From assembly GCA_032718475.1 (NCBI GenBank), contig JAUCBJ010009037.1:15644-79643 (forward strand): a stretch of DNA of 64,000 bases, read 5' to 3'. The notes beneath the pieces are model-generated. The model did no database searches, was not told where the DNA came from, and saw only the letters and a list, made by a program, of their open reading frames with translations. This DNA is from Nemertoderma westbladi (taxonomy: Eukaryota > Animalia > Xenacoelomorpha). Of this stretch, positions 11,479 to 57,373 are shown piece after piece (position 1 is the first letter of the stretch; each line of letters starts with the position of its first letter). A program made the position numbers and the translations under genes.

Positions 11479-11559
11479 GCCATCCTAGCTGGAGGTTATG
11501 GTATTGTGTCTGGTTGTAGTGGAGTTGAAGTGATTGTGGTGGGTTATAATGGAGGTGAA

Positions 11560-29000: not shown

Positions 29001-29995
29001 TATTACTGCCGTTATTGTGTATGATTTAGATGTTATTACTGCCGTTATTGTGTGTGATTTAGCTGTTATTACTACAGTTATTGTGTGTGATTTAGCTGTT
29101 ATTACTACCGTTATTATGTGTGATTTAGCTGTTATTACTACCGTTATTGTGTGTGATTTAGCTGTTATTACTGCCGTTATTGTGTATGATTTAGATGTTA
29201 TTACTGCCGTTATTGTGTGTGATTTAGCTGTTATTACTACCGTTATTGTGTTTGATTTAGCTGTTATTACTACCGTTATTGTGTATGATTTAGATGTTAT
29301 TACTGCCGTTATTGTGTGTGATTTAGCTGTTATTACTACCGTTATTGTGTTTGATTTAGCTGTTATTACTACCGTTATTGTGTGTGATTTAGCTGTTATT
29401 ACTACCGTTATTGTGTTTGATTTAGCTGTTATTACTACCGTTATTGTGTATGATTTAGATGTTATTACTGCCGTTATTGTGTGTGATTTAGCTGTTATTA
29501 CTACCGTTATTGTGTTTGATTTAGCTGTTATTACTACCGTTATTGTGTGTGATTTAGCTGTTATTACTACCGTTATTGTGTGTGATTTAGCTGTTATTAC
29601 TGCCGTTATTGTGTATGATTTAGATGTTATTACTGCCGTTATTGTGTGTGATTTAGCTGTTATTACTACCGTTATTGTGTTTGATTTAGCTGTTATTACT
29701 ACCGTTATTGTGTATGATTTAGATGTTATTACTGCCGTTATTGTGTGTGATTTAGCTGTTATTACTACCGTTATTGTGTGTGATTTAGCTGTTATTACTG
29801 CCGTTATTGTGTATGATTTAGATGTTATTACTGCCGTTATTGTGTGTGATTTAGCTGTTATTACTACCGTTATTGTGTATGATATAGCTGTTATTACTAC
29901 CGTTATTGTGTGTGATTTAGCTGTTATTACTACCGTTATTGTGTTTGATTTAGCTGTTATTACTACCGTTATTGTGTGTGATTTCGCTGTTATTA
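26011..29995. repeat. 33-bp minisatellite GTTATTGTGTGTGATTTAGCTGTTATTACTRCC, about 120 copies
   Basis: Directly visible. Confidence 0.98.
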
Positions 29996-35964: not shown

Positions 35965-37530
35965 TCATGTAATGTAATACAGTAGCATACTTTAAATAAT
36001 TCCTCACTAGGCCTACATATTACAGTGGTCACAAGAGCTGGTTGATTACAATTTAGCCAAAATTGTGCCTTGCATTTAATTACCCGATAATGATAATACT
36101 GTAGGCCTATGTACTGTACTGTCTGTACAATTGTCTTCCTACATACCTTTTATTGTTATACATTAGAAGGCGAAACCTTCGCGACTCTTATAATTTGGCA
36201 TCGGCTTACCATTAATTAAATAATCAAACGTAAAGGGATAAATAATACAGTTTAGTAGAATGGTCACAAAAAGGGGGTGCGGGTATCGTATGTCTTAACA
36301 TTGTGGGGAGTAGGAGCGAGGAAGATTTTGCAGGTTTTCTTTCATCTTTAATGGCTTAATGCCAAACAAATACAATGAGGTGGGGAGGGGGGGGGGACTT
36401 GTCGCAAATCCCTCCTTGGCGAATTAATATCTCCTCGCTTCAATGTTAAATTAAAATTATCAATTTAGGGAAAGGAGCAGGTTACATTGGCATTGGCACG
36501 TTATTCTAACAAAAACAATAAACTAAAGTTAATAGAACAGGTTACAACTTTTTTGGGGAGTAATCAGCTGTTATTTGCGTCGAATTTCCCTAGTGGAGCT
36601 GGAGTGGGGTGAATTTTTACTAATCATGTTTCTGTACAGGGCTGGATTAAGCCAAATTGGCGCCCGGGTTTAAGCGCGACAATAAAAAATTGTAGGTCCT
36701 ACATAGTAGTGATCGGAATACACCATGTCCTGGAATTATAGTGTTGTAATTCAGTGACACGGCCACCCCCAATATCTTTCTCTAATCTTGATCAGATTGT
36801 ATGAAATTTGAAACAGAAATACTGTACTGTAGTTGCACCCCCCTCGTTGCTCGACCTTAGTGGGTGCGCAACAATTTTTATTTTTGCTTTCAATCTTTAG
36901 TTACAAGAGTTTGATATTGCACCAGACATATTGCAGAGCTATTCCTTAACCTATCCACGTCGCCCTTTCATTGGAAAACTCAGTATTCCCATCGCTTTTC
37001 ATTTTGAGAAAAACGCCAAAGACTTTGGAAGTTCTGCGATTGATGACCAAAGCAATGAATTCAACCAAAGATTTGTCAGAACCAAGCAGGTTGTTTTTCT
37101 AAATTTGTTAGTGAAATTTATAGGGCCTAGATTTCTAAATTTTTTAAACTTGTTTAGAAATATTTCTAAAACTAAATATTGAAAATAACAAATTTAAAAT
37201 TAATATATTACTTTACAGAGTTTTAAATAGAAACACATGAATCAGAATTTAACATTAACTCCTGTAATATCAAATACACTCATTTGTGGTATTGTTTTTA
37301 CGTAGATTGACATAGACTGTATACAATCATCACAGTCTAGGGGTGTTTCACTGACATTCCCGTAATTTAAAGTCTTTTTAGAGCATTTTTCAAGGAAACA
37401 TGAAAAATAATAGCTGAGGGTTGATTAGGTACAGTTAGCCTAGGCTGAGTGTGAGTCGGTCATGTGGAAAGGGACCAAGTCTGACCGGGTGGTAATCCTA
37501 CCGTGAACCTTAGGCATTCAGCGCGACCTG

Positions 37531-38803
37531 TGTACGCGCTTTTGAAGACCTTTAGCAGTTTAACCTGCCAAAATTTATATGTCTTTTGGTTTATAGATAT
37601 ACTTTAGAAGATGACAAATATTTAATACCAATAAACACAACATTAGCAGAAGCCAGCCTAGTGCGCGTCCATTCACCCGCTGGATAATCCCGGGAGACTG
37701 GATTCTGAGGGCTTAAATTATTATTGCAGTGAAGCTTACTGTATTGTATTATTCGATTGATCGTTAATAATTAATTTCTGACTAATATTATTTACTTTCG
37801 GGAAATATTAACAGTTCCTTTAGGACGTGGCGCTCTATTTAAATAGACAGAGATATGACTTATACTAATCACAACGGTAAGTCAGTAAGGCTTAAGATTC
37901 ACGTATGAGGCGCATTCTTTAGGAAATGCTTAGTTATCAATCACAATCATGCACACTACCGGTAACACACAATACTGCTCACTAATTTGCCGACCGTCAA
38001 TGAATTTTATCATATATAAAGCGAACAGCAATTGACTCATGTAGGGCTTATCAAATAGCATTAAATTCACTACAAACCACAACAATATAAGTCGCAATCG
38101 CTATATATAACCCGTCTCTCTAACCTGTAGTGTATCAAGAAAATTGGGAAATTTGGGTTCTTTATATATGTTCTCCAAATAATATTCAACCAAACACAAA
38201 AGTAAATGGCAGTATAATAATGTATATTGAACCGATAATACAAGAATAGAAACAAGTTGATATAAATTGATATATGATGTATTATGAATTGATAACAGTC
38301 ATACGCTCTATAATTTAAGCCTACTAATGTTTCTTCTAAAAGTATGAAACGAATTGATTCTAGAGCCGTTGTTCCTGGCCTAGACAGCAATAACAACAAA
38401 GTATCAAGAAAAAACAGTAAGACTGAACACTCTCCTTATGATCGACCGAAAAGCTACACGTCGACAGGAAAAATTGCTCTGATTGGTTCAAGCCAAACAA
38501 AGAACCATGCGTCCAATGGCTGTTTCCATGTCAGCAACCAGCTGTTAGATGTCGTAATATGAATCATCACGGCTAAGCTATGAAAGGTATTTGTCGCATT
38601 GCAGGTTTTTTGCCTTACCATGTCCGCTAAAACATGTATATAGCAGAATGACTTTTATGTCCGTTAAAACACCTGTAAAGGTACCTTGCGGGCGAGGGGA
38701 ATATATATACAGTTAGAGAACCCTTTTTAGAGTATTCCAGCGCCTGGGGGGAAACTGGATTGCGAAGCAAAAGGGCCAGTTATATCCCACAGAAGCTTTT
38801 ACA
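37531..38803 (-). repeat. 3' LTR (1273 bp)
   Basis: Nearly identical to 54994-56272; only a handful of differences seen by eye. Confidence 0.97.
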
Positions 38804-38811
38804 CCGCTCCC
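38804..38811 (-). other. Short polypurine tract
   Basis: GGGAGCGG on the minus strand abutting the 3' LTR. Confidence 0.7.
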
Positions 38812-38881
38812 AGAAAATGGGATTTGAGTCTATACAATATACAAAATCACAGTTTCTAATATACGTAAATACTCTAAACAG

Positions 38882-41800
38882 TTAGTCTTTCTTGCGCGGA
38901 CGGCGTTTACGCAGTTTTTTAAAGCTAGCCAGAGTCCTTTTCTCTTTGGGGCGAGCCACTTTACAAGGAGGGCTATAACTCCTGGGTGAAGGGTACAATA
39001 TGATTGCATCAGAGGGTGTAGGATTATGGTCGGTGTATCCGCCAGTCGAAGTACCGGGTTGATTGACATCAACGTCAGGTGAGAGGGGTCTAACGGCTTT
39101 GAGAGCTCGTTTCAAGACAGCCGCTCTTACGGGTCCTTTACGAGTGGTCTGAACGAGGGCCGTGGGTGGACCATAGGCAGTTAGAAACTTCCGGGGTTTA
39201 ATGGTCCTTTCCAACTCGCGTTCGCGGGCTCGGTATTCGTAAGGCCGTCGATGTACTTCCTGCAACTCGGGGTGTGAGTTAACAAACAAGTCTCCATAGT
39301 CCGGATCCTGACGGATATAATTGATTAAGTTATAGGAATGAAGGTCGCTATGATTAACACTCCTGAGAAATTTGCGTACGAATTTAGTTGAAATACATTC
39401 TCCGACGCGCTTCAGTAGCTCGTAACTTGATATGCGTGATTTCTGTTCAACAGAAGCGAATAGATAAGGATGGAACGCATAAACTCCTTCGTAAGCGCGT
39501 CCGGGATAATAGCGATGGCGCGAATCACAATGTAAATCAGCGTTCGCTTCCCAAGCTCTGATGTAACGCAGTGTGATCATTTCATCTACGCTTTCCAAAT
39601 CGTGATTAAAAGGGCAGTCGAAACTAGCATGTCCCTTTAGTTGACAATGGTGACATTGAGTCATAAATTGAGGGCAAACCGCAAAGATATGCAGGTTATT
39701 GAGTCTGCAATATGCGCAATAAATTTCCATAGTCGGTTGTTCTTGGAAATAGGAACAGCGGACGTTGGTGTCCATGGGCGTATCGTGGTCTCTCGATGCG
39801 CATAACCGACAACGTTGCCTAGAAACATAGTTGGCATGGCGATAATCGTACGCAGTGAGACACTGTGGGCCTTGATACCATTCTATGATGTAATCGTTGT
39901 CGCTGGTCCGGGGCGCGATAGGCTGAATCTCTTCAGATTCTAGACATATTGGTTCGTCTTCCAAGTGCATAGCTGAAGTGGGCGTGTCTGTCTCTTCAGG
40001 TGGACCTATCGTCTGAATTTCCACGACAGAATAACCTGTGGGAATTCGAGGTCTTTGTATAACTGAGGAGTGCAAGTTCGATATACAAATCTCTTGGAAA
40101 ATGGCGAATCCAGCGCTATCCAACTTCTCTGCAGCTGAGTTTCTTAGGCTGAGTTTGGTCAAAGCGCGGTCTTTAAATTGGCTATCCACGTTGCGGAACG
40201 GGGTTAAAAATCTCCGGAAACATTCGAAATGGATGAATTTATTATGTTCATCTAGCTTAGCGAGTTTGGTCCCAAGTATTAATGGATGGGCGCGTATAGT
40301 ACGACTGCACACATCAGCTAGCCAACCGGCAAGTGCGGTGTTTTCAAAGATCGTGTATATAGCTAACGAGGGACGGAGTGGAACACTCATGAAGCTATAC
40401 ACGGCGCCAGGTGCGGTCAATGGTCCATCAAAGTATAATCGAGAATAATGGTCTCCGTATACCTGTTGATAGTTAATGGGATTTCCGACTTTGAAATTCC
40501 ATCCGTATTCCTGAAAGGCAAGATGTCCGATGGAAGTTCGTTGCACCTTGGTAATGTTGCTAGACGTATTAGCATACATGGTGCGGAAGAAACCTCGACC
40601 TTCTGCCCAAGGAGCAATCAGCTGAGTATCAACGAAAGGGTATGGAATGTCCTCCATATTCCGAAAGTTGTTTTGTAGATCTCCATAAACAGCTGAGCCG
40701 ATTTTAAGGATTCTTTCATTGAACAACATCTCGAGTACGGGCTGGGGTAACATCGATCCATCGATGCCCATGGCCGGTTTGCGTTCGGTGTCAATGACGT
40801 AACGCTGCGCGAGTTCGAATTGTCCATGTCGGAGATTCTTTTGTGTTTCGGTAAGAGTTTCAAAAGAATAATCAATCAAGTCGGAACACGCTCGAGTAAA
40901 CACGTGGGTAGAACCAGCTAATCCGCGGATGTGGATCATGCGCGTAGTTCCTAGCTCTCCGACCGGAACGCTACCTTCATTATCGTAGGTGACAACTCCA
41001 TACATCTCAATAACATTAAGAGTTTCATTCCACTCCTTGGTGGCGTTTTCTAGGGTCATCCCTACTGGATGCCACAAAGTGGCGCATTGGTTAGCGTCAG
41101 GGAGATCACTATACTTCATATGCCGAGTGGTATATGTCTCCACATTTCCATATCTTTGTATTTTCTCTTCTTCAAATAATACATCTAGATTCCAATGGAC
41201 TAATCGAGTTTTAATAAATCCATCGAGGTTATAAGGAGGTTCTATATCTTTCTCGATTCGAGAAATGTTATATGGTTTTCTAAATGAGTTAATGTCTAGA
41301 GGATTTATTAGTGGTAGAAACTTTAAATCATGTGTCGGGTCTTCTGGTTTTACCATATAATATTGAGTCAGATTAACGTAATAAGGGTGGTCTTTAATCC
41401 CGTAAAACGAGTTCTGTAAGGGTCTAGCGCGTATGTTGACATCGTGTACCATACGACGGACAAGATCCGCTCGATTGTCCGGAGGTTCAACGAGTATACC
41501 GTCAACACGAGCGGCCTCGATCGGCGGACGCTGTAACATAGGGGCGTCAGCGATAAGGTTTTGCGATCCTGTACTGATATCAACCGGTTGAGGTTGTATC
41601 GTCGCGAAGAGTTTGTCTCCGAAATGTGGAATCATAGAGGGATGACGAACGGTTTTAGAGTAGAGGTCCGTCATGAGGATTTGAGCTTCAGGTTGGGCTA
41701 AAGCGGCTTCTTCTCTTTCTTCCAGTTTCGTGTGTTTCTCTTCGATTAGATTTTCTTCCGCTTGTCTCTGTAAGCATTCATCTAAAAATTCTTGTAGAGA

Positions 41801-43087
41801 ATACGTGCGTCCAAGCTCGATGTCTTCCTCGAGGTTTTGAATTTCTCTATCGAACTGTGGCAAGGCTAACTCCTTCACCGATTGGACTTGTTGTTGTAAT
41901 TTACGTTTCTCTAAACAATCTTGTGTTCCCTTTCCGATTTTCTGTCGAATGGCGTCTAAAGCGTTTCTTATAACGCTCTCCTCGACTTCCGTGGCGGGTT
42001 GTATCGGGTTTAATCCTGGACGATTGTAAGGATCAAAGGGTAATATTAGCTGCCCGCGTCCCAATCCGGCTAAGTAGGATGGGCGGATGTCTAACGAACC
42101 CACTACCGGAGCACCACCGATTAATTGTTCGGGTAACACTAAGTCTTTGAACAGGGAATATAGTTCGGGAGGATCAGTGATACTGTTAGGATCAAGAGTT
42201 TGAGGTCTCACGAGGGAATGAGGAGGCCTGACCGAGTATTCCGGAACTCTGATCATGGGTTTATTCAGTGATCGTTTAAGACGAGCGATCGTGGGTGGTA
42301 CGTCGAACAGGTTTCGCTCGAAACTCCCGTAAGTGTAACGCGTAAAACTATGTTTAGCGCAACGTCTCCGCGGATGTTTATGTCTTTCAATTTGTTGGTT
42401 GGGTCTAGGGCATTCGTCGCAATAATACCAAAGACGCACGTCCTGTAGAGGAAACGCGGGTGATCGTTCTCCAGTTTTGCAGTATTCTTCCATTTGTTCA
42501 AAACTATCCGGGATAACAGGTAGTGGACGATCGGCAGTAAGATACATCATAGTGAAATAGAGCCGTTTGAGTTCTACTACAGGGTCGTGATGGATACCTT
42601 GAGGATATCGAGTCTCTAAGTTCTGCTGACTAGCGACGTTGAGATAGGTTTCTCTCAAAAACTCTAAGTATTCGTTGAAGTCGATGCGTTTATCCGGTTC
42701 TTCAACGTTTTCTCTTTCCAGTCTATTACGAATAGAATTTTCGTGATCTATTCTCGGTTTATCGTTACGACTCCGCTGGGTATGATATTTAAATAGAACC
42801 ATTTCCCTTTCTGTATCTACATCGTCCGTATCATGTAAATCGATAGGATGGCCGGTCATTAGGAAGTCCATATACGTACCATTACGATTCGTATAGCGAG
42901 TGGTGAATTTTCGATAGTCCAATTCACGCGCAAGTTGCTCTTGGGACATCGGCGGTTCGATATAACGACCATCGTCCTCCGTAATGGTTGGATCGGCTTC
43001 ACCGCGTATTAAGCTATCCACAAATGCTTGTAAAGGTAGAGTATATCGCTCCCTAATACCAAGATCATCTTCTATTAACTCCGTCAT
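38882..43087 (-). CDS. ORF3, 1401 aa: DEDDy/RNase D-like 3'-5' exonuclease domain, CCHC zinc knuckles, basic C-terminus
   Basis: ExoI VVTYDNEG; ExoII LPQPVLEMLFNERILKIGSAVYGDL; FVDTQ; ExoIII-like PLRPSLAIYTIFE; CAYC..H..C and CHHCQLKGHASFDC; no obvious signal peptide or TM segment. Confidence 0.8.
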   Translation of the reverse strand: MTELIEDDLGIRERYTLPLQAFVDSLIRGEADPTITEDDGRYIEPPMSQEQLARELDYRKFTTRYTNRNGTYMDFLMTGHPIDLHDTDDVDTEREMVLFKYHTQRSRNDKPRIDHENSIRNRLERENVEEPDKRIDFNEYLEFLRETYLNVASQQNLETRYPQGIHHDPVVELKRLYFTMMYLTADRPLPVIPDSFEQMEEYCKTGERSPAFPLQDVRLWYYCDECPRPNQQIERHKHPRRRCAKHSFTRYTYGSFERNLFDVPPTIARLKRSLNKPMIRVPEYSVRPPHSLVRPQTLDPNSITDPPELYSLFKDLVLPEQLIGGAPVVGSLDIRPSYLAGLGRGQLILPFDPYNRPGLNPIQPATEVEESVIRNALDAIRQKIGKGTQDCLEKRKLQQQVQSVKELALPQFDREIQNLEEDIELGRTYSLQEFLDECLQRQAEENLIEEKHTKLEEREEAALAQPEAQILMTDLYSKTVRHPSMIPHFGDKLFATIQPQPVDISTGSQNLIADAPMLQRPPIEAARVDGILVEPPDNRADLVRRMVHDVNIRARPLQNSFYGIKDHPYYVNLTQYYMVKPEDPTHDLKFLPLINPLDINSFRKPYNISRIEKDIEPPYNLDGFIKTRLVHWNLDVLFEEEKIQRYGNVETYTTRHMKYSDLPDANQCATLWHPVGMTLENATKEWNETLNVIEMYGVVTYDNEGSVPVGELGTTRMIHIRGLAGSTHVFTRACSDLIDYSFETLTETQKNLRHGQFELAQRYVIDTERKPAMGIDGSMLPQPVLEMLFNERILKIGSAVYGDLQNNFRNMEDIPYPFVDTQLIAPWAEGRGFFRTMYANTSSNITKVQRTSIGHLAFQEYGWNFKVGNPINYQQVYGDHYSRLYFDGPLTAPGAVYSFMSVPLRPSLAIYTIFENTALAGWLADVCSRTIRAHPLILGTKLAKLDEHNKFIHFECFRRFLTPFRNVDSQFKDRALTKLSLRNSAAEKLDSAGFAIFQEICISNLHSSVIQRPRIPTGYSVVEIQTIGPPEETDTPTSAMHLEDEPICLESEEIQPIAPRTSDNDYIIEWYQGPQCLTAYDYRHANYVSRQRCRLCASRDHDTPMDTNVRCSYFQEQPTMEIYCAYCRLNNLHIFAVCPQFMTQCHHCQLKGHASFDCPFNHDLESVDEMITLRYIRAWEANADLHCDSRHRYYPGRAYEGVYAFHPYLFASVEQKSRISSYELLKRVGECISTKFVRKFLRSVNHSDLHSYNLINYIRQDPDYGDLFVNSHPELQEVHRRPYEYRARERELERTIKPRKFLTAYGPPTALVQTTRKGPVRAAVLKRALKAVRPLSPDVDVNQPGTSTGGYTDHNPTPSDAIILYPSPRSYSPPCKVARPKEKRTLASFKKLRKRRPRKKD

Positions 43088-44705
43088 ATCTGCTATCTGA
43101 GTTTATTAATATCAAATAAGTTTGTATTTAGGCGAGCGGGCGTCGCTGCCTACTTTCTTTGCCCCCGGACAGTGGGATTCTCAGCGCCGATGTACCGTCG
43201 TCGCGGTGTTTACGCCAACATGTAGCAACAGCACGACAACGATAACCGGCACAAGTCACTCCACTGTCCGTCCCAAAGGCTTGGATCCACTTAGGTTCTT
43301 TCTATAGGAGAGTTGGGCTATTTTTACAATTGCGACTAGCTACTGTAAACATACTTTAGCAGTAACATTCACCTATAAACGCACAAATTCCACACAACTG
43401 TCAACAACTGCACACACACAGGCCATTTGTCCGTTAGTCAGTGCCTTCCAGAATGTCACTTTATTACTGTGTATCCTTGGATACTAACAGTGTGCTATAT
43501 TCTATGCTATGCAATGGGACAAGCTTTCTATTGTTCTTTTAACTTGCTTCTAATTCTAGCGTGGGTGTTGCTATGGTGACATTATGGAATGCTAGCGGTA
43601 GAATTAGAGTAATTCTCATGCATACAGATCTGGGATGCTATTTAATAATAATTCTTTAATTGTCAATATCCTCTTTATGCATGATTTTGTTAATTTTATC
43701 GGCTATTGACTATATGTTGGAGATTCTCGCACTCTAATACACTCAATAGGATGAATCTCCGCTCCCATGATCTATTAATTAATGGAATTTTGGGAATGTT
43801 ATAAATTGTACAAAATGACAATTTATGAAATTCATTTAAAATATGAATTTAAATTTATTCCCGTGAATTTTATTATTTGATGTTAAAATTGACACAATTT
43901 GATTCCAGAGCAGGTCTGGGGACATAGGATCTTTAATTCTATAAAATTGTCTTTTAAGAGTATCGGTAAGTGCTGCGATATCTTAATTGACTAGAAATTT
44001 TAAAGGATCTGAATTTTACAGAATTTAATAAATATTAAATTAATATTTAAGATGGGCACCGATTTATTCCAGAACTTGTCTGGGGACGTTAACCACTGAT
44101 TCTAGAATTGGTCTTTCAAGTATATCGGTGGGTGCCGCGATATCTTAATCGACTAGAATTACAGATGGTCAAAAGGTTTAACAGATTTATTTGCGTTTTA
44201 CGCTACTGTTATAGGGACATCACGCTACTATATGTATTATTATATATGGTATGAGAGCAATATCGCACGAAGCAATGTCAGTGTGAAGAGGCAAGTCGTT
44301 TCCAAGGTCTACCCAGAGCTTGGCTTAGCCGAGACACGAGGATCTGAACTTTGCATTCCTAATACTCTGCCTACCAATAATACTTGAATATAGTAGTGGC
44401 TTTATTGTACTTTAAGAAGTACGGACATTTCATCTTACTGTAGTCACGTATTTATAATATGATACGGACAGTAAGGAAAGAGAAAATAATTATTTTCTCG
44501 CCGTCGCACTAAATATATATTATAAGTAATTACGTACGTAATAAACACTAATATATTGCACTAATCTACTAAATAATCACTAAAATAACATTCTACTAAA
44601 TAAAATTGAATAAAAACGATTATAATAAAGTACATAATAAAGTTCACATATAAAAATATAACAAAATAGATAAAATAATATAGTCATACACCCACTCCAG
44701 ACGTA

Positions 44706-47516
44706 TCACGTTAGGGAGTCCCTAGATGTTTGAGGAATTAGGGAGGTGGTCGTGGGAAGAGTGTCTTGCCTTCCATAGTTTCCAGAGAGTTCCCTGTCTC
44801 TTTCCAGTAAACATAAACGACCAACTGGGCGATTGAGTTGTTGCGTCTCAAAGATGATGCCTGGTTTCTTGAAGTTACGCCGCATGACGATGAGTTCTAC
44901 TGAGCGTACTAAACCATCATCTGAAATGTGTGTCTCGATGATACGACCTGTCTGCCACCGTTTACGTGGGAGGTCTGGATCTACAATAAGCACCATATCT
45001 CCGGTGCTGACGTTTTCTTGCTGCGCAAACCACTTAGTTCGAAGTTGTAGCGTGGACAGATAATGTTTCTCGAAATGGTCAGCGAAACGACGGGATAGCA
45101 ACTGCATAAGTTGCCAAGTTCGACGGCAGTATTCGTCTCCGTCGGCAATCTCCGATCGTGGGAGCATGGCTACGGGTTTCTTCAGTAGGAAGTGCGCGGG
45201 TGTTAGCGCTTCCAGGGAATCGGGACTCGATGAGACTGGCATAAGCGGTCTCTCGTTGAGATAGGCAGCGATTTCCTCCATTAACGTCCGCAAAAGTTCG
45301 TCGGTGAGATACGCGCGGCATGGCACTATAAAGTGAAATGCGGTTTTGACACTTCGAATTAATCTCTCCCAACTTCCTCCCCACCAAGGGGCGTCGGCAG
45401 CGTTGAAGGTCCAGCTAGACGCTGTTATCCTTAGCTGGTCGTCCACCTGTCTTTGGTTCCAGTCCTTCACGTAAGCCTGTATCTCGTTGTTGGCACCTAT
45501 GAAGTTCGTTCCTTTATCCGATCTCATGGTATTACTCGTCCCGAAGCGAGCGATCTGTCGTCGTAAACTTAAGACGAAGCTGTTAGTAGATAGATCGTTC
45601 ACCATATCGAGATGGATGGCTCTACAAGTCATGTACACGAAGATGACACACCATCTCTTGACTATAGTCCTCGCACGATATACTTCAATAGGGCCAAATA
45701 AATCTACACCAGTATTAGTAAAAGGTGGTTCATAGAAGCTTACTCGTTCCCTAGGTAATTCTGCCTCTCGCTGTGTTAAAGGCCTACTGAATGCTTTCCT
45801 ACAGGGTATGCAGTTCCTAAGAACTTGGTTCAGAGCTCTACGGGGTTTATCAAAATAATAGCGAGTTCGAATTTCGCTAAGAATTCGTTCTCTACCAGCA
45901 TGGTAAAGTTTACCGTGAACGTCTACAATCATCTTGATTTGTACTTCAAGATTTCTAATAAGTATGGGGAATTTGGTGTCAAAGGATAAGGGCGCGTTGG
46001 TGAGTCTTCCTCCAACACGTATTAACCCATCTATCATTGTGCTCGAGAATCGATCCCTTAAGCGCATCTGTGGATTTCTCAACAACAGGAAGTACTTTTC
46101 GGAATCCTCATAGCATTGCAGGAGTCTCAGTATCTGTTTATTTGTTTCTTCATACTCCTGGTGACTAATTTTCTCTTTTAGAAAACGATCAGATATCTTA
46201 TATTTGGGTAAATTCTTAATAACATGAACTTGTGCAGATGTCAATGGAGCGTGATCACTAGTGGTCTTCGTCCTGGAGTAGTGATGATGAAAACATCGTC
46301 TTAAAAATGTGACGGCTTTACAGAGCCGATTCCAGGAACTGTAATGATGCATTGCTCTCTGCAGCATGGGTGAGATTCCTTGCGAGACGTCTGGTATTCC
46401 AGATTTCCAATCTCTATCTCGAATTTCCACAACAGACTTATTTGTGTTGAGGGATTGTGGATCCGAAACATCATTCCCGGAAGTGTGTAATACGGATAGA
46501 TCGATAGTCGGTTTAAATAACTTTGATTTACTCGCCCGGGTTTTAGGTTTGACGGTCTCCGCTCCCTTGGCTTGTCTAATCTCTGCCGTAGTAAGGTGAG
46601 GAGGCCATTCATCCTCTTCCTTGCTCAGGAAGTCGGGTCCACCCAACCAATCTGGAGTATCTATCAGTTCCTGTGGAGTTGCTCCCCTGGAGGCGATATC
46701 GGCTGGATTAATCGTACCAGGGCAATGTCTCCATTGATCTATCTTTGTGCGACTAAGAATAATAGCTACTCGGTTAGTAACAAAAACGCTAAACTGACAG
46801 ACTTCATTGGTGAGATACTCCAACACGAGTAAAGCGTCGGTCCAATAAACCGTTTTCTCCAGTGGATAGTCGATTTGTTCCGTTACGTTCCGGCCGATGG
46901 CTGTAGCGTATAAAGCCGCCTTTAACTCCGCTCGAGGAACCTTTAACTTGTTGTTAATCAATGCCTTAGAGGTAACCAAGGCGACCTTGATTCCATCCGG
47001 AGTTTCGACTCGCAGATATGCTACTATACCTATTCCCATATCGCTGGCGTCTCCAAACACATGGAGTTGATAGGAATACGTAGGAAGAACATGGCCAAAA
47101 TATGCACGGGAAATTATAAAGTTCTCGATGGCAGGTAGAGAATCTTCCCATTTCATCCATTTCTTCAACAATTCTCCCTTAAGCGGATCGTCCCATGAGT
47201 GGTTTTCAAGCCACATCTGTTGTACTAAACTCCGAGCAATCAATATAACTGGGCTAATAAATCCCAATGGGTCGAAATAAGTGCTCAGGATACTTAAACA
47301 AATCCGCTTGGTCCGAACTGGATTATCTCGCTGTTTTAACTGAAAAAACAGGATGTCTCTTTCAGTGTCCCACTTCAAGCCTAGCGTTTTGGTTTCAGGA
47401 AGATCGTCCTTTATTAAGTCTAGGTCTTTCGCTCCGCGATCTTCTACCGGTATGGCTACCAGAAACTCACGGGAGTTGCTAGTGAATTTCGTCAGTCGAA
47501 ATCCACCTCTTTTCAA
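44706..47516 (-). CDS. BEL/Pao pol C-terminal part (RT thumb, RNase H, integrase); in frame with the upstream ORF after one TGA
   Basis: GGFRLTKFTSN, LHVFGDAS, ELKAAL, NPADIASRG, H..HAG..CIPC, GVDLFGP, SDKGTNF, WERL, LQLRTKW. Confidence 0.93.
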   Translation of the reverse strand: MKRGGFRLTKFTSNSREFLVAIPVEDRGAKDLDLIKDDLPETKTLGLKWDTERDILFFQLKQRDNPVRTKRICLSILSTYFDPLGFISPVILIARSLVQQMWLENHSWDDPLKGELLKKWMKWEDSLPAIENFIISRAYFGHVLPTYSYQLHVFGDASDMGIGIVAYLRVETPDGIKVALVTSKALINNKLKVPRAELKAALYATAIGRNVTEQIDYPLEKTVYWTDALLVLEYLTNEVCQFSVFVTNRVAIILSRTKIDQWRHCPGTINPADIASRGATPQELIDTPDWLGGPDFLSKEEDEWPPHLTTAEIRQAKGAETVKPKTRASKSKLFKPTIDLSVLHTSGNDVSDPQSLNTNKSVVEIRDRDWKSGIPDVSQGISPMLQRAMHHYSSWNRLCKAVTFLRRCFHHHYSRTKTTSDHAPLTSAQVHVIKNLPKYKISDRFLKEKISHQEYEETNKQILRLLQCYEDSEKYFLLLRNPQMRLRDRFSSTMIDGLIRVGGRLTNAPLSFDTKFPILIRNLEVQIKMIVDVHGKLYHAGRERILSEIRTRYYFDKPRRALNQVLRNCIPCRKAFSRPLTQREAELPRERVSFYEPPFTNTGVDLFGPIEVYRARTIVKRWCVIFVYMTCRAIHLDMVNDLSTNSFVLSLRRQIARFGTSNTMRSDKGTNFIGANNEIQAYVKDWNQRQVDDQLRITASSWTFNAADAPWWGGSWERLIRSVKTAFHFIVPCRAYLTDELLRTLMEEIAAYLNERPLMPVSSSPDSLEALTPAHFLLKKPVAMLPRSEIADGDEYCRRTWQLMQLLSRRFADHFEKHYLSTLQLRTKWFAQQENVSTGDMVLIVDPDLPRKRWQTGRIIETHISDDGLVRSVELIVMRRNFKKPGIIFETQQLNRPVGRLCLLERDRELSGNYGRQDTLPTTTSLIPQTSRDSLT

Positions 47517-50500
47517 TCACTCTACCGTTCCTTTCGCGACAGCTATGGCTTCTTCTACTGATGAAAGGGACCTTAAATTGTCGTCCATGTATATATTGCG
47601 TTTTATGTTGTCCATCACTTCTTTGGAGAAGGAGTCTCGGTTATCATTCGCAGTGGTTCGCACCACGGAGCAGGCGTTGGAAGGGCTTGATATGATCCCA
47701 AAAGCCTGGATGGTCATCCAGTACTCTACCGGTTTCTGGTTGAGGTCTCCTTCAGGCCACCACAGAAATCTCAGGCTGTCTCTATCTCTATCCAGCGCCT
47801 TGACTTGTAAGAACATTCCTTCGATATCAGAGGCGAACGCGATGGAATATTGTCTTAATCTTAATAGTATTCCCAACAAAGATTGGAGTAAGTTGGGTCC
47901 TGGTAACAACTCGGAATTGAGGGATTGGCCCATATATAGCGCAGAGCCATTAAATACGACTCGTACTTCATGGGGTTTACCGGGTTTGGGAACGTAATGA
48001 TGTGTTAAATAATACGTTCTCTCAGTCACTGGTGTTCCTTCCGGTACTCGCTCCGCGTATCCCTTTGTTATAAATTTCTTCAGCTGAGTTTGGTACATTT
48101 CTTTCGCTGAAGCATTAGCTGTAAGTCGTCGATATAATTGAGCGATTCTTTTCTCTGCCAAGGGTCTGTTATTTATAAATCTAGGTTCTCGTTTTCGAAA
48201 TGGTAGGCCGATTTCATACCTACCTTGGTCCTTTAAAAAACGTGTAGTTGTTTCCTGGATTTGCTTGGCTCTTTCTTCTTCTATCGATAGAGCCTTATCA
48301 TATGAATTGGGCTCTACCAGTTCCTGAGTAAAGAATCGTACAGCTAGTTCGTCCCGAGTTCTAGCGTTGCAGCGCTCTATCTCATCGTTTAGTTCGTCAT
48401 TGTAAGCGATGGGTTCCGATGGGTGAATCAGTTGACATAGGTTCACCTGACTTTTCCAATTTTGGTTTTCTGTAAGTAGGTCGATTGTGTTCTCTTCATC
48501 GAAGAGTTGGTAGATGTCGTCATTATCTGAGGAGTATGGTGTTCCCTCAGTTAGTTCGTCCACCTCACTGCTCTCCACTTCCCAATCGTGTACTTGGTAT
48601 GTGTGTTCTTGTGGCATTCTCTCTTCGAGAGTCCTGCGGGAAGGGCCAGTAAAGTACCAACCTACTCTAGTTCTTACTGCATAGGTTTGCAGTGGCTGTG
48701 GTTGAGCAGGCCGTTTCTCCAATGTTTCGAGCGCCTCATGCGCATTCTGGCCGATGAGGATTTGCACTCCAGGATAATCTGTCTGGAATCGAGGTATCTC
48801 AAGATGTTGGATGCTCTCATCCTCGTCCCAATTATAAAGGTCTGCTTGAGTAGTAGCGAAGTTCTTTATAGCCACCATTTTTACCGACCTTATACCTTGT
48901 GTTCCTAACTTATCCTGGGGGGTGGACAACACACCTACATAGTAATCTGCCGTTAAGGTAGATTTCCAAACCTGCATAATTCCTGACATATTCAATTTAG
49001 TCCAGAATTTGGGTTGTCCAGCAAAGATATCTTCGGCTAATTCTTGATCGATGAATGTTCCTGTGCTGCCGGAGTCAAGGAGGGCGTTCACTATGTAACT
49101 TTTGTTAAGACCGTGAACTCTTACCTGTACTACAGGAAATTCTCTGATTCCTACGTTGGAAGTTGGAGCTTTCCAAGATGGTTGTTTGGCAAAAGTAGTT
49201 GGGGGAAACTCATTGTTGGTGTCCTTTTCATAAGTAAGTGCTCGATACACTGCGGTATTGATTAGATAACAGGATTCGTTGGCGTCGGAGAATTCGTCAG
49301 TATAGAATCCTTCCATCTCAGACTCCTGATCAGTGTCGTTTACATCACTGAATTGGACATGTAGTTCGGGCTCACTTACCTGACTCTGTTTGTCTCGTTC
49401 GAACTCACTGTGTAACAAGATGTGATGTTTCGCGCCACACTTTGCACACTTTATGTCGGAGTAACAGGTTCGCCGTTGGTGTCCTGGTCTGAGGCAATTA
49501 TAGCATAACCGCTTGTCCCACACAACTGCACGTCTGTCTACAAGGGATTTCTTTAGAAATTCAGCACACGCACTCAAACGGTGGGTCTCGTCGCACAGCG
49601 CACAGTTAGGTTTTATGTTACTCACCTTACCTTGGGTAACTTGATGCACTCTCGTTTTTTCTTCGGGTTTTCTTCGGTGCATTCTGTTAGGAGACTGAGG
49701 GGGGGTCTTGGTAACCCGTTCTCTCCTATCGTTGTTTCGAGCCTTGTATTTACTTACATCTTTTGAGGTTTTGTCAACGTAGTAAGATCGCTCAGTATCT
49801 TTCCCGCTGTCCTCTTCTTGAGAAACTTGGCTTTCGCCGTCGTCAGTGTAACACACCGGTGTTATTCTTCTCCTAGAAGCGGGTTTCTCACTTACCTTAT
49901 TTTCCGATGTTTTCTCTCTGGACTGCTTGATGAGTTGTAGTTTTACCTCACCATCTAAGAAGGACATGAGATCAGCCATGGTAGGACTTCGTCGTTGTTG
50001 TTCATTCATGTACAACACTTTCTTGTCCCAGCGAGTACATACTCCACCCTTTGGTAAAGTAGAGACTACGGCTCCAATAACCATTGAACTCTGATATTCA
50101 TGAGACTTACCTAACCAGTCCAATTGTCTACAGATCTCTTGAATCTCATCGGGAAACTCTATAATCCCGCTACTAAGGAAGTGTCGGGGGGCTACTAATT
50201 TTGCATACAAATACTTAGCTATGTTATCCTTGTTACCATACCTGATGTTTAATGTATCCCATACTTGTCTTAATCCTTCTGGATGTCCAAAAAACTTTAA
50301 CGCCATTAACTTGGGAGGTCCTTCCAAGCACTTGATGAGAAACCTAAGTTTCTCTCCATTAGATAGCACAGAGTTCTGTATGCTGTCTTTGTAATATTCG
50401 TTGAAAGGTAACCATTTCATCTCATCTCCATTGAATTTGACGATCTCTCCCACTTTGACCGCTTGGCGGGCTTCTGTTCTAGCCATCTGCCGCGTAAAGC

Positions 50501-52793
50501 TTTCTTGGGCCATCGTGTTATTTAATATCGAATTATCGGTATATAAATTTCTCGGATCATTATCAGGTCTATAGGGAATATCATTAATAACAGGTCTATA
50601 ATCACCCTTAATAGGGTTTGCTATAGGAGTTTCTACTTCACTAGCAGTATAGATGCGTGTAGGCTCCACACCTTGCGCATGTAATACTTCAGACCTAACA
50701 GGTTGACACAATGTTACAGGGGGTATTGGTATTCCCTTTTGTATATTGACTAATTTGTCGCGTTCTAGCGCGATACTTTGCTGCACTTCTTGCAATTCGG
50801 CCCTACTTTCCCTTACTGTTCCCTTAAGCTGGTGGACAGTCTCCTGCATCTGTCCGAGCAGGAGATTCATCCCCCGCCGTCCCTCCTCTACCCACTCGAC
50901 CGCCGAAGCGGGAGTCGCCAACATAGTAGCGGGCTGACGCGGGATGACGGGAGACAAATCTTTGATTTCTCTCTCAGCTTCCAGGACAGGGATATTCTCA
51001 TGGACTGTTCTACTGGGTACAGGCAGTGTAGTACTGTGTAAAGGGAATTTAGAGTGAAGCTCTGGAAGTACAGGGGTCTCTAACACAGAAGTGACTTTGG
51101 GAACGACAGGCCTAATTATTTCAGGCTCATCAACTATTGTAGGGAGCCTTTTGACCTGAATAGTTTGGTAGGTGGGTTCCGTACTCGCTAAGTCTGTGCT
51201 AGCTAGTTGTCTTCTAACAGCTGGGGGCAAATCAGGCAATTTGTGACGATGAGATGTTTTTCTACGCCTGCTTAGACGAGATCTATTTCCTCCGCCTTCA
51301 GGATCGGTGGTTTCACTTTCTTCCGATGATGTGTATCCCTGACGTTTGGGAGTAGATTTTCTCATCATCTGCATGTGACTAGCAGTTAACTGTTTATTTA
51401 TGTTGTCTTGCGTCTCTTGCAGATTTTCCAACTCCAGTTGGGTAGTCTGCTCAGACGCTCTCCGTTCTGCTTCTGCCACTGCCCTTTCCGCCTTTGCTTC
51501 TGCCGCCGCTGCCTTTCTTTTTGCTTCTGCTTCTGCCGCTGCTGCCTTTCTTTCTGCTTCTACTTCTGCCGCCGCTGCTTTTCTTTCTGCTTCTGCTTCT
51601 GCCGTAGCCACCGCCTTTTGTTCCTCTATCCGTCTTTTCTTTACTTTTTCTTCTTGGACTCTAGCGACGCGGAGTTTTTCATCAAATTCTGCTTGGTTAG
51701 CAGCTAACATTTCAGCATCGATTGAATCTAACACACGCTGGGTTCCTTCACTGTTGGGGGAAAGTCCAGACAGCCGTCTCCTCAACTCTTCGTCTCCTAG
51801 GAATCGCTGATAGTCGGACTGATAAATGTCTATGGCATCTCTCATTCGTGGTTTCTCTGAGGTCTCTTCGCCTTCCACTTGAGAAAGGGTGGCATCGGTT
51901 GGTTCTTCATAAGTTAGTCTCTCAGACAGCTGGGATTTCCACTGGTCTGTTTCTTGGATTTGGAGACCTACCTGCTGGAACCAAGTTTTGACAGCAACCT
52001 GCAGCGACGTGTCCTGTCTTCTTTTGGAAGTTTCCTCAAAAGCTGATAGGATTAGTCGAATGCGTAGGGTTCTTTCGCGTACTTGATATAGCAGTTCTTC
52101 CTGCTCTTGAGGTCCTTGGGGTTGTCGAAACAGTTGTTCTTCTAATCTCTCTAAGGAGCCGAAGAATCCCTGCACATATCCTGCTGCCGACCTCTTCCAA
52201 ACAGCTGGATCCATCGTATCTTTAGCCACTCCCATCCTGTGTATATCTTCCCAAGTAGCCTCGGACAGATCTAACGGGAGTCCGGGTCCGGGAAAGTTCC
52301 ATTGTGACTCGACAATCGACATCAATTCTTCCCTGGCGTATCCCGCATAATCATCTTGGGTCGCTCGCTTATTTCTCGCCCAATCTGCTTGATGTTCCTC
52401 CACCGCAATCGATATAGTTGTTAGCACTGCGGCAGGAAGGGTGAGAAGGGGGTCCGAGTAGGCTTTAGCCGTCATCTGCAATCCGCGTTCGGGGGTCAGT
52501 TCGACAGTATCCGAACTACTGGAGCTATCGGATCGCTGGGAACAAATTTCTTGACTAGGCTGTTGCTGTTGTGGGACAGCTGCTTCCTGGTTCCGTTTGA
52601 CTTGGGCCCGAGTGCCGATGATGGACCTACGGTGTTGGATTAGCTTAGGGTCCGATATCACTACTGGAGGGATGACTTTTCTTTCAGTAGGAGGTGAGCT
52701 GAACTCCTTTCTTAAACGCTCCACACTCCTATCTGTGTCACAGATGGTTGTATCGATTAGACTGTCTGACAGGTTTTGCTGAGTGTCAGACAT
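47517..52793 (-). CDS. BEL/Pao gag, protease and RT N-terminal part
   Basis: Gag core KFNGDEMKWLPF..EKLRFL; knuckles CALCDETH, CYNCLRPGH, CAKCGAKHHILLH; protease ALLDSGS; RT RVVFNGS, PGPNL, DIEGMF, YMDD. Confidence 0.95.
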   Translation of the reverse strand: MSDTQQNLSDSLIDTTICDTDRSVERLRKEFSSPPTERKVIPPVVISDPKLIQHRRSIIGTRAQVKRNQEAAVPQQQQPSQEICSQRSDSSSSSDTVELTPERGLQMTAKAYSDPLLTLPAAVLTTISIAVEEHQADWARNKRATQDDYAGYAREELMSIVESQWNFPGPGLPLDLSEATWEDIHRMGVAKDTMDPAVWKRSAAGYVQGFFGSLERLEEQLFRQPQGPQEQEELLYQVRERTLRIRLILSAFEETSKRRQDTSLQVAVKTWFQQVGLQIQETDQWKSQLSERLTYEEPTDATLSQVEGEETSEKPRMRDAIDIYQSDYQRFLGDEELRRRLSGLSPNSEGTQRVLDSIDAEMLAANQAEFDEKLRVARVQEEKVKKRRIEEQKAVATAEAEAERKAAAAEVEAERKAAAAEAEAKRKAAAAEAKAERAVAEAERRASEQTTQLELENLQETQDNINKQLTASHMQMMRKSTPKRQGYTSSEESETTDPEGGGNRSRLSRRRKTSHRHKLPDLPPAVRRQLASTDLASTEPTYQTIQVKRLPTIVDEPEIIRPVVPKVTSVLETPVLPELHSKFPLHSTTLPVPSRTVHENIPVLEAEREIKDLSPVIPRQPATMLATPASAVEWVEEGRRGMNLLLGQMQETVHQLKGTVRESRAELQEVQQSIALERDKLVNIQKGIPIPPVTLCQPVRSEVLHAQGVEPTRIYTASEVETPIANPIKGDYRPVINDIPYRPDNDPRNLYTDNSILNNTMAQESFTRQMARTEARQAVKVGEIVKFNGDEMKWLPFNEYYKDSIQNSVLSNGEKLRFLIKCLEGPPKLMALKFFGHPEGLRQVWDTLNIRYGNKDNIAKYLYAKLVAPRHFLSSGIIEFPDEIQEICRQLDWLGKSHEYQSSMVIGAVVSTLPKGGVCTRWDKKVLYMNEQQRRSPTMADLMSFLDGEVKLQLIKQSREKTSENKVSEKPASRRRITPVCYTDDGESQVSQEEDSGKDTERSYYVDKTSKDVSKYKARNNDRRERVTKTPPQSPNRMHRRKPEEKTRVHQVTQGKVSNIKPNCALCDETHRLSACAEFLKKSLVDRRAVVWDKRLCYNCLRPGHQRRTCYSDIKCAKCGAKHHILLHSEFERDKQSQVSEPELHVQFSDVNDTDQESEMEGFYTDEFSDANESCYLINTAVYRALTYEKDTNNEFPPTTFAKQPSWKAPTSNVGIREFPVVQVRVHGLNKSYIVNALLDSGSTGTFIDQELAEDIFAGQPKFWTKLNMSGIMQVWKSTLTADYYVGVLSTPQDKLGTQGIRSVKMVAIKNFATTQADLYNWDEDESIQHLEIPRFQTDYPGVQILIGQNAHEALETLEKRPAQPQPLQTYAVRTRVGWYFTGPSRRTLEERMPQEHTYQVHDWEVESSEVDELTEGTPYSSDNDDIYQLFDEENTIDLLTENQNWKSQVNLCQLIHPSEPIAYNDELNDEIERCNARTRDELAVRFFTQELVEPNSYDKALSIEEERAKQIQETTTRFLKDQGRYEIGLPFRKREPRFINNRPLAEKRIAQLYRRLTANASAKEMYQTQLKKFITKGYAERVPEGTPVTERTYYLTHHYVPKPGKPHEVRVVFNGSALYMGQSLNSELLPGPNLLQSLLGILLRLRQYSIAFASDIEGMFLQVKALDRDRDSLRFLWWPEGDLNQKPVEYWMTIQAFGIISSPSNACSVVRTTANDNRDSFSKEVMDNIKRNIYMDDNLRSLSSVEEAIAVAKGTVE

Positions 52794-54982: not shown

Positions 54983-54993
54983 ATGACTGTTAT
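54983..54993 (-). other. Non-tRNA primer-binding site ATAACAGTCAT (self-priming type)
   Basis: Abuts the 5' LTR, lacks TGG, and is the exact complement of LTR positions 55757-55767. Confidence 0.75.
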
Positions 54994-56272
54994 TGTACGC
55001 GCTTTTGAAGACCTTTAGCAGTTTAACCTGCCAAAATTTATATGTCTTTTGGTTTATAGATTTACTTTAGAAGATGACAAATATTTAATACCAATAAACA
55101 CAACATTAGCAGAAGCCAGCCTAGTGCGCGTCCATTCACCCGCTGGATAATCCCGGGAGACTGGATTCTGAGGGCTTAAATTATTATTGCAGTGAAGCTT
55201 ACTGTATTGTATTATTCGATTGATCGTTAATAATTAATTTCTGACTAATATTATTTTTACTTTCGGGAAATATTAACAGTTCCTTTAGGACGTGGCGCTC
55301 TATTTAAATAGACAGAGATATGACTTATACTAATCACAACGGTAAGTCAGTAAGGCTTAAGATTCACGTATGAGGCGCATTCTTTAGGAAATGCTTAGTT
55401 ATCAATCACAATCATGCACACTACCGGTAACACACAATACTGCTCACTAATTTGCCGACCGTCAATGAATTTTATCATATATAAAGCGAACAGCAATTGA
55501 CTCATGTAGGGCTTATCAAATAGCATTAAATTCACTACAAACCACAACAATATAAGTCGCAATCGCTATATATAACCCGTCTCTCTAACCTGTAGTGTAT
55601 CAAGAAAATTGGGAAATTTGGGTTCTTTATATATGTTCTCCAAATAATATTCAACCAAACACAAAAGTAAATGGCAGTATAATAATGTATATTGAACCGA
55701 TAATACAAGAATAGAAACAAGTTGATATAAATTGATATATGATGTATTATGAATTGATAACAGTCATACGCTCTATGTATAATTTAAGCCTACTAATGTT
55801 TCTTCTAAAAGTATGAAACGAATTGATTCTAGAGCCGTTGTTCCTGGCCTAGACAGCAATAACAACAAAGTATCAAGAAAAAACAGTAAGACTGAACACT
55901 CTCCTTATGATCGACCGAAAAGCTACACGTCGACAGGAAAAATTGCTCTGATTGGTTCAAGCCAAACAAAGAACCATGCGTCCAATGGCTGTTTCCATGT
56001 CAGCAACCAGCTGTTAGATGTCGTAATATGAATCATCACGGCTAAGCTATGAAAGGTATTTGTCGCATTGCAGGTTTTTTGCCTTACCATGTCCGCTAAA
56101 ACATGTATATAGCAGAATGACTTTTATGTCCGTTAAAACACCTGTAAAGGTACCTTGCGGGTGAGGGGAATATATATACAGTTAGAGAACCCTTTTTAGA
56201 GTATTCCAGCGCCTGGGGGGAAACTGGATTGCGAAGCAAAAGGGCCAGTTATATCCCACAGAAGCTTTTACA
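54994..56272 (-). repeat. 5' LTR (1279 bp)
   Basis: TGTAAAAGC...GCGCGTACA on the minus strand; CCAATCAGAGC box shared with both solo LTRs. Confidence 0.97.
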
Positions 56273-57373
56273 ACCTGGATAAATGAAAACGGCTGGCTTA
56301 TAAGTTTGAATGCAATTTATAAGGTATTTCCATTCCATGCGCGTAAATAATGAAGGGGGAGTTTTTTTATTTATAAAGCTGTTTAAGTTCTATATTTATG
56401 CCTTTCGAAGAGTCTATTATTGGTTGCGGTAATAATTATGACTGTATGATAAAATAAAATTACCAGGTGATCTGCCTACATAATACATTTGTTACTGAAG
56501 TAGAAAAGTTAATTTAGCATCGTGGTGATAATTTGAATCAAATTTCCCTCCAGTTCTTTCTGTAACAACTATAACATAAGCATTTAATTGAATTTCAACT
56601 ACAAAAAATTTAAACGCATTTATCTCAAAATGTATTTTTTCTCATTTGCCCTTTCAACTGTGACCATCGCCAATGAGGTGGAGTGTTCCTTCACAATAGA
56701 TGGCATTAGTTTACCAAAGCTGTATTAAATTAGGCCTAATGATATTTATGATTACATGATGTACCGTATGTTAAAAAAAGTAGAAAACAAGCAATACAGC
56801 TCAGTATTGCGTGCCTATAATTTTCACTTTATCAGTTCCATTCGCCATTGAGCAAAATATTTCGGTTTCTAAACAAAATTTAGATTTCCTAAAATTTTTC
56901 AAACCGTTTAGAAAATTTTCACAGTGAACATTTTGAAAAAAAAAACCCTGGAACCAAGTGAAGCCATTGGTTCATTTAGCCAACCAATAAAAAACAGGAA
57001 TTTATTTACCAGAATTTAATTAGTTCTCATGAAATGAGGCATAGTCGTTGATACTGGGTATTGGTATGAAACTTAGGAGATATTGGGTTTTGGTATGAAA
57101 CTTTTTGGAAATACTGCGTTTTTTACCTTTGGTATGAAACTTTTTGGAGATACTGGGTCTTGGAATGTAAATTTTTGAATGCACTTGGTTTTGTATTATT
57201 ATTTAGAAAAAAATCAAACCTATGTTTCAACTAATTCAAGCTAGTTTATTATCAATCATTATCGAGAATCGACTAAGACTGTGTATAATATTATCAACTA
57301 CTGTACAACTACAAGTATACACAATTTGATTATTATCACTAATTATTCCCAAACCGCAGAGTTCTATAAAATG

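Follow-up and report, generated by a model that had tools for sequence, protein, structure and literature searches.

Third open reading frames (ORF3s) that encode DEDDy exonucleases, with the motif DEED, have been described in the bdelloid rotifer Ty3/gypsy elements Juno and Vesta and in Athena/Terminons (PMC5408684). In Juno1/2 and Vesta2/5 (Rodriguez, Kenefick, and Arkhipova 2017, PMC5408684), a separate RNase D-like DEDDy ORF sits in the env slot of a long terminal repeat (LTR) element. A similar arrangement was found in a 64,000-nucleotide stretch of DNA from Nemertoderma westbladi (contig JAUCBJ010009037.1; the whole stretch is called the window, and positions are counted from its first letter), where a BEL/Pao retrotransposon of 18,742 nt occupies positions 37531-56272 of the minus strand. 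Its ORF3 (38882..43087; 1401 amino acids [aa]) is intact and, as a preliminary description of the locus had stated, lies on the gag-pol strand between integrase and the polypurine tract, reading from 43087 to 38882. All features of the element given below are on the minus strand. Judged from its sequence, this is the first DEDDy-type ORF3 seen in BEL/Pao; its site, DEDE-y, is conserved, and a module of three knuckles goes with it. A third LTR lineage is thereby added to those with exonuclease cargo.

The rotifer ORF3s, which we compared by description only, share with this one the replacement of one acidic residue, Asp, by Glu. However, Juno and Vesta are not BEL/Pao elements, and the motif is DEED there and DEDE here. 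Their ORF3s lack coiled coils according to the authors, and a triple knuckle is not described for them, whereas the present protein has 1401 aa in an 18.7-kb element. None of the rotifer DEDDy ORFs (Juno/Vesta/Athena) was returned by protein searches with ORF3. Terminon/Athena elements (PMC6431247, PMC5408684) are likewise large mobile elements with a DEDDy 3'-5' exonuclease as cargo, but are Penelope-like. The Dada DNA transposons (PMC3706591) also carry a DEDDy domain; there it lies inside the transposase and has all four DEDD residues. A third ORF after integrase is known in BEL/Pao elements with env, e.g., mosquito BEL with a Chuviridae-like glycoprotein (PMC13524379), from which ORF3 differs in having no transmembrane segment or glycoprotein features. 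The preliminary description had pointed to a rotifer precedent for DEDDy cargo ORFs, which PMC5408684 confirms, and had judged the size and architecture of this ORF unusual for BEL/Pao. In our literature search, no BEL/Pao element with an exonuclease ORF was found, Repbase entries and most subscription journals being outside its scope.

ORF3 contains a predicted RNase D-type exonuclease domain

The predicted DEDDy/RNase D-type domain spans aa 690-930 (40298..41020). Its candidate active-site residues, D702, E704, D803, Y911, and E915, are encoded at 40984, 40978, 40681, 40357, and 40345, respectively, within the region (about 40330-41030) where exonuclease motifs had been proposed. The domain resembles the PF01612 exonucleases RNase D, Rrp6, EXD2, Nibbler (MUT-7), and WRN in the ExoI DxE, the ExoII helix-KxG-D-DT core, and the ExoIII spacing PL-x7-Y-x3-acid. 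It differs from them by its score below every curated cut-off, a Glu in ExoIII, insertions of about 30 aa, the lack of a detected HRDC domain, and the fusion to zinc knuckles.

As a reference we used 60 PF01612 domains from bacterial genomes, and a custom RNase D profile was built on 20 RNase D-like rows. This profile scored aa 782-828, the ExoII core, at 17.6 bits, and none of 2000 whole-protein shuffles did as well, while another reference group of 29 PF01612 rows gave no signal in ORF3 (-2.3 bits). Among the 18,950 NCBIfam models, only two matched the domain, both of them RNase D (E 0.0027 for TIGR01388 and 0.021), although the domain fell far below the curated cut-offs of PF01612 and TIGR01388. 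A PDB sequence search with the nuclease domain yielded no match. In global alignments with the 60 reference domains, D702, E704, and D803 fell on invariant columns; ExoIII could not be placed by them. Scored in isolation against bacterial motif matrices, ExoI and ExoIII were not significant (172/1000 and 165/1000 shuffles), with other positions scoring highest, and their assignment is therefore based on the global alignments and on the distant homolog P0122 (below) rather than on isolated motif scores. Two other candidates were rejected: D766/E768 as ExoI, which lies only 17 aa ahead of the helix of ExoII, in alignment with the third strand, and aa 969-987 as ExoIII, which has the higher bacterial motif score, but the ExoIII of P0122 aligns with aa 899-916.

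Single-sequence structure prediction of the domain reached a pLDDT of 31. An RNase D-guided model, built with the N-terminal half of each of the 60 references as input, covered the ExoI-ExoII half; of its first 15 ten-residue blocks, 8 reached a pLDDT of 78-95. This model is circular and had no decoy control. It matched EXD2 with a Z score of 9.2 (rmsd 4.8, 119 aligned residues), and also Nibbler, RNase D, Egalitarian, and Exd1, all subject to the same circularity. Behind the nuclease domain, no HRDC domain was matched with 20 full-length RNase D proteins or Pfam, and the region was predicted to be helical at low confidence.

Together, the sequence comparisons support an RNase D-type (DEDDy) domain in ORF3 weakly but consistently, and its fold is very probably DEDDy. 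The proposed DEDDy-like exonuclease domain thus held up in the profile, NCBIfam, and P0122 comparisons, and the check for a DnaQ-like fold signal did not contradict it. The wider assignment to an RNase D/WRN/EXD/MUT-7 family stood for the RNase D signal; RNase D is the best match by sequence, and the subfamily (WRN, EXD, MUT-7, or Rrp6) is not callable.

A single distant homolog shares the layout and the ExoIII Glu

An exhaustive search of 1.84 billion protein representatives gave exactly one match to ORF3 at E≤0.001. This protein, P0122, has 648 aa and comes from a 9449-nt ENA contig. It aligned with aa 759-926 of ORF3 at 29% identity (pairwise E 2e-13), with a second aligned stretch at the knuckles (4e-4), and has the same layout, i.e., exonuclease, three knuckles, and a shared post-knuckle motif. 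Its residues D62, E64, D130, Y229, and E233 correspond to D702, E704, D803, Y911, and E915 of ORF3, and its motifs are more regular (SIDVE, VIKVGSNIKAD, LDTQ, and WTKPL...YIYCEN). By itself, P0122 matched PF01612 at E 0.2, and with the RNase D profile none of 2000 shuffles scored as well. A two-sequence profile of ORF3 and P0122 matched RNase D with an HH probability of 91% (E 1e-6). Relative to RNase D-type proteins, the nuclease domain has large insertions of about 30 aa.

The ExoIII Tyr, Y911 in ORF3 and Y229 in P0122, stands eight residues past a conserved Pro, as in RNase D, and the fourth Asp of DEDD is a Glu in both proteins (E915 and E233). ORF3 is therefore filed as a DEDDy-like variant and not as a canonical member. 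That the ExoIII Asp appeared to be Glu had been pointed out before; P0122 shares the substitution, and Glu prevails in two runs (below). Since it is common to both sequences, the Glu reads as a family trait and not as a sign of decay, a naturally occurring Asp-to-Glu change in a textbook active site. The domain is somewhat more likely to be catalytically active than not, because the two proteins, at 29% identity, agree in all four carboxylates and in the Tyr.

Word-indexed protein searches, covering proteins of near length and shorter ones, returned no ORF3 homolog, and no matches to ORF3 were found in metagenome contigs, viral contigs, or phages. Protein searches gave no close cellular homolog, and ORF3 has no introns. 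Rfam over the element gave one weak chance match only.

ORF3 is multi-copy and under purifying selection

Six public runs from four studies contain ORF3 or part of it, one of them possibly the window's own source. Contigs matching 38700-45200 at 80-100% identity numbered 45815 in run X1, 12519 in X3, 632 in X4, and 266 in X5, with all 30 bins of the segment covered. Thousands of diverged contigs in four runs thus point to a diversified multi-copy family.

Variants were read from two tables, the best-supported 40 of 1723 differences in 38700-45200 and the best 40 of 115 in the nuclease domain, which have four sites in common and do not amount to a phylogenetic dN/dS. Among the best 40 of 1723, 33 lay in ORF3, and 24 of these 33 were synonymous compared to 22-31% expected (P≤1e-6), giving a rough omega of 0.11-0.17; six of the nine replacements were within aa 127-264. 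Of the best 40 of 115 variants in the nuclease domain, 34 were synonymous, again compared to 22-31% expected (rough omega 0.05-0.08), none of the six replacements hit the five motif residues, and no indel reached 25%. All of the best 12 of 131 indels were outside ORFs, though ORFs make up 72% of 38700-45200. At codon 915, the counts in X1 and X3 leave no room for a common Asp, i.e., Glu is the majority state, while those in X4 and X5 do leave room.

ORF3 is, therefore, multi-copy and under purifying selection, not the single, unconstrained captured copy that the preliminary description had set against its own proposal. A high-copy, recently active BEL/Pao family thus keeps a DEDDy-type gene under clear constraint. 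The rotifer DEDDy ORF3s are low-copy and showed no testable departure from neutrality, only env and GDSL ORFs having been tested (PMC5408684).

ORF3 is probably an accessory gene

For comparison, 78 other BEL/Pao loci were taken from metagenome contigs; their identity to the pol of the element was 27-41%. None of the 78 matched ORF3, the ORF3/P0122 profile, or the DEDDy profiles; only 14 of the 54 loci that reach the integrase end have at least 2 kb downstream. Within the family itself, some contigs bridge large parts of ORF3. One such joint, 39961-42718, which is out of frame and removes the nuclease domain, occurred in three of four runs, and its contig had a depth of 2918 in X4 compared to 22-1817 for the other X4 pieces listed, which hints at multiplication of a derivative lacking the nuclease. 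Given the relatives without ORF3 and the ORF3-deleted derivatives, ORF3 reads as an accessory gene whose product can probably be supplied in trans. These natural deletion derivatives, along with the distant homolog that pins the predicted active site, single out a defined 250-aa domain.

Zinc knuckles and other parts of ORF3

Three zinc knuckles lie at aa 1093-1158 (39614..39811; Pfam zf-CCHC_3 with the knuckle region, E 0.0057). Two of them fit CX2CX4-5HX4C, whereas the first is atypical (CX2CX4HX9C) and aligns with a regular knuckle of P0122, so that of the three CCHC knuckles noted previously, two were recovered in regular form. The best PDB match of the region was Air2 (E 0.047), and the ORF3/P0122 two-sequence profile matched HIV-1 nucleocapsid (E 0.0014). 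From these similarities, the knuckles are likely to bind single-stranded RNA.

A post-knuckle motif at aa 1172-1205 (39473..39574), seen by eye and not scored alone, is similar in P0122. The remaining features named earlier were located as an N-terminal Cys/His cluster at aa 223-247 (42347..42421), with no family match, and a Lys/Arg-rich tail (38885..38977; 14 of the last 31 aa). The coiled coil stood in part, as a coiled-coil-like segment at aa 431-465 (41693..41797) by a crude heptad score only. The whole ORF3 protein gave no Pfam match at E≤1, a capsid domain included, and a PDB sequence search was also empty. As previously described, envelope features were lacking: the maximum 19-residue Kyte-Doolittle hydropathy was only 1.2, with no transmembrane or signal segment, and an env function was rejected on this ground.

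Structure of the BEL/Pao element

The element is bounded by a 5' LTR (54994..56272, 1279 nt) and a 3' LTR (37531..38803, 1273 nt), both with TGT...ACA ends and identical at 1271 of 1273 aligned bases, the differences being two substitutions and two small indels. It is flanked by the target-site duplication CAGGT (56273..56277 on the 5' side, 37526..37530 on the 3' side). Near-identical LTRs and the duplication mark the insertion as recent and the copy as young. A fold-back at 4465-7357 of the window, whose arms (5100-5701 and 6184-6804) share about 75% identity with the 3' half of the element's LTR, is a related LTR in palindromic form.

Gag, protease, and the N-terminal part of reverse transcriptase (RT) are encoded at 47517..52793 (1758 aa; Pfam DUF1759, 3e-11), followed in the same frame by the rest of RT, RNase H, and integrase at 44706..47516 (936 aa; Peptidase_A17, 2.8e-36; DUF5641, 3.5e-20; Integrase_H2C2, 3.6e-7). 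An in-frame TGA at 47519-47517, directly after the YMDD of RT, interrupts pol in this copy; a frameshift was considered and rejected. DUF1759, Peptidase_A17, and DUF5641 all exceeded the Pfam cut-offs and thereby place the element in BEL/Pao, as do the domain order gag-protease-RT-RNase H-integrase, the LTRs, and the target duplication. A polyprotein search gave 183 BEL/Pao-type matches at E≤1e-20, the best at 45% identity, and polyproteins from bivalves, sea cucumber, tunicate, nemertean, barnacle, and insects were at most 40% identical. The gag part (47520-52793) has an unusually long N-terminal portion of about 780 aa ahead of DUF1759, with an Ala/Glu/Lys repeat at 51484-51604. Within the 2.2-kb leader (52794-54982), strong hairpins follow directly on the primer site; the leader also has 38-nt repeats and a tandem duplication of 288 nt (85%). 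At the other end, ORF3 stops 78 nt ahead of the 3' LTR, which is preceded by the polypurine tract (38804..38811).

The primer-binding-site position, the 11 nt after the 5' LTR (54983..54993), lacks TGG and is Tf1-like. It is the exact complement of LTR positions 506-516 (55757..55767), a candidate self-primer. The 11-nt match was kept in 23 of 20000 LTR shuffles, the pairing could be extended by 7 more bases into the LTR end, and the predicted pairing probability was high only when the RNA started at 55767. Tf1 likewise has an 11-nt primer site right behind the LTR and complementary to its own LTR, and its self-primer is cut by RNase H (PMC7175516); however, Tf1 is a Ty3/gypsy element without an exonuclease ORF. 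In two BEL/Pao relatives without ORF3, the post-LTR site had only 7-nt perfect matches to the own LTR. The BEL/Pao loci L145 (1700-1715), L167 (998-1013), and L195 (327-345) have no TGG primer site after the 5' LTR, and that of L145 could form a 10-bp duplex with its own LTR if G-U pairs are counted.

The spacer between pol and ORF3

ORF3 starts 1618 nt downstream of the pol stop, and the spacer contains 19 ATGs, which rules out simple scanning from the genomic RNA to ORF3. A segment of the spacer (44365..44698) has a purine tract with TGT (44698-44688), TATAAA (44456), AATAAA (44406), and a motif starting with TGG (44376). The TGT (44690) is 111 nt past the integrase end, where relatives start their 3' LTR: a purine tract with TGT was present within 400 nt past integrase in 29 of 51 relatives (median 120 nt; 26% in shuffled sequence), indicating that their LTR directly follows pol. 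The segment may thus be a relic LTR and a candidate ORF3 promoter; as no second copy of it was found within the element, this is a reading by inference. Alternatively, it could be an internal plus-strand primer site. By the layout of the spacer, ORF3 is probably made from its own subgenomic RNA, through the internal TATA-bearing segment or by splicing.

Proposed function of ORF3 and alternatives

The locus bears on the open question of active counter-defence or RNA-processing enzymes in animal retrotransposons. We tentatively propose that ORF3 would be an accessory RNA-binding 3'-5' exonuclease that acts in trans and protects the element RNA from small-RNA silencing or decay. Subgenomic RNA would supply the protein, its nucleocapsid/Air2-type knuckles would bind single-stranded RNA, and a DEDDy-type site with two metals would, in spite of the Glu, be active and remove nucleotides from 3' ends. 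Host small RNAs or their precursors, chewed from the 3' end, would be the target, and the element would thereby be shielded; this choice of target is possible but still more tentative. Viral exonucleases (ExoN) serve in proofreading, which allowed large nidovirus genomes, and in immune suppression, and the arenavirus ExoN is a virus-borne DEDD nuclease that acts against host immunity (PMC7968707). A silencing role has also been entertained for the rotifer ORF3 (PMC5408684). In its widest form, which we regard as unlikely, the proposal would unite ORF3 and P0122 in a hitherto undescribed nuclease family of mobile elements, marked by a DEDE-y exonuclease, three knuckles, and a shared C-terminal motif, and would make that family the first enzymatic suppressor of small-RNA silencing in an animal LTR retrotransposon, destroying piRNA/siRNA precursors 3'-end first, which would explain the high copy number.

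Several points weigh against protection in trans by an active nuclease. Pfam gives ORF3 no exonuclease match, P0122 is the only homolog found, and the ExoIII Glu may alter catalysis. The variant tables hold best-supported rows and not a phylogenetic dN/dS. Contig depth does not measure copy number, and derivatives with the deletion may in any case lack autonomy. Furthermore, strong constraint across many copies is more easily explained by a benefit to the own RNA than by a shared good.

This last point fits a reading in which ORF3 acts inside the particle, with the knuckles on genomic RNA and the nuclease tidying 3' ends during reverse transcription; the substrates would be the self-primer, the RNA 3' end, the ends of the cDNA, or bases misincorporated in the RNA of about 17 kb. 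The nucleocapsid-like knuckles and the Tf1-like primer site agree with it, as do the 3'-end processing proposed for the rotifer and Dada domains (PMC5408684, PMC3706591) and the proofreading that enabled large nidovirus genomes (PMC7968707). However, the Tf1 primer is made by RNase H alone (PMC7175516), the 78 relatives do without ORF3, and ORF3-deleted derivatives persist, and we consider a role in the particle rather doubtful. Trimming of the primer, one of the roles suggested in the preliminary description, looks least needed, because the Tf1 primer is made with RNase H (PMC7175516) and derivatives without ORF3 exist.

Another reading takes the nuclease as weak or dead and used for RNA binding, ORF3 being an adaptor that would localize the element's RNA in the germline or shield it there; its coiled coil would serve oligomers or motor adaptors. 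Egalitarian and EXD1 have weak or dead nuclease domains that serve RNA binding, and Egalitarian and Exd1 were among the fold matches of the (circular) guided model. The Glu in place of the ExoIII Asp, the large insertions, and the 690 aa of extra N-terminal sequence with its coiled-coil-like part would also fit an adaptor. Dead DEDD domains, though, usually lose the acidic positions and the Tyr, whereas neither ORF3 nor P0122 has lost the Tyr or any of the four acidic positions, and we regard an adaptor as quite unlikely. Catalytically inactive DEDD derivatives do exist in piRNA pathways (PMC5408684).

That ORF3 is the main gene of a second mobile element, which it would serve, e.g., as a Gag-like RNA chaperone, and which gained the BEL/Pao gag-pol by fusion as a later partner, is very unlikely. 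The purine tract with TGT, TATA, poly(A) signal, and TGG motif do stand where relatives have the 3' LTR, the knuckles near the C-terminal end and the basic tail are as in Gag, and DEDDy ORFs move between retroelement classes (PMC5408684). Yet no capsid domain was found, the element has the internal segment only once, and the spacer between pol and ORF3 was unbroken in contigs of all four runs, with 0-9% of the pieces continuing into unlike sequence. Such a fusion concerns the origin of ORF3 and is compatible with the functional readings, including the exonuclease acting in trans that we favor. That ORF3 is a recently captured host gene fragment and functionless passenger, for which only the interrupted pol of this copy speaks, is extremely unlikely in view of the thousands of diverged contigs in independent runs, the synonymous excess (P≤1e-6), the avoidance of indels, and the lack of introns and of a close cellular homolog.

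Other features of the window

Outside the element, the window has three single-ORF, intron-less genes: a sorting nexin with SH3-PX-BAR domains (22021-23784), a cytochrome P450 (32629-34182), and a WSC-sulfotransferase (62259-63971). These neighbors indicate that the host is an animal. Their CpG observed/expected ratios of 1.1-1.4 are not depleted, which suggests little CpG methylation. LINE-type endonuclease and RT frames lie on the minus strand at 128-2451. A 33-nt tandem array at 26015-29995 comprises about 121 copies with 96% matches and has long open stretches on both strands. Finally, long inverted repeats were found at 57374-57695, 8479-13449, and 17449-20968, one of them a perfect 161-nt palindrome without a spacer.

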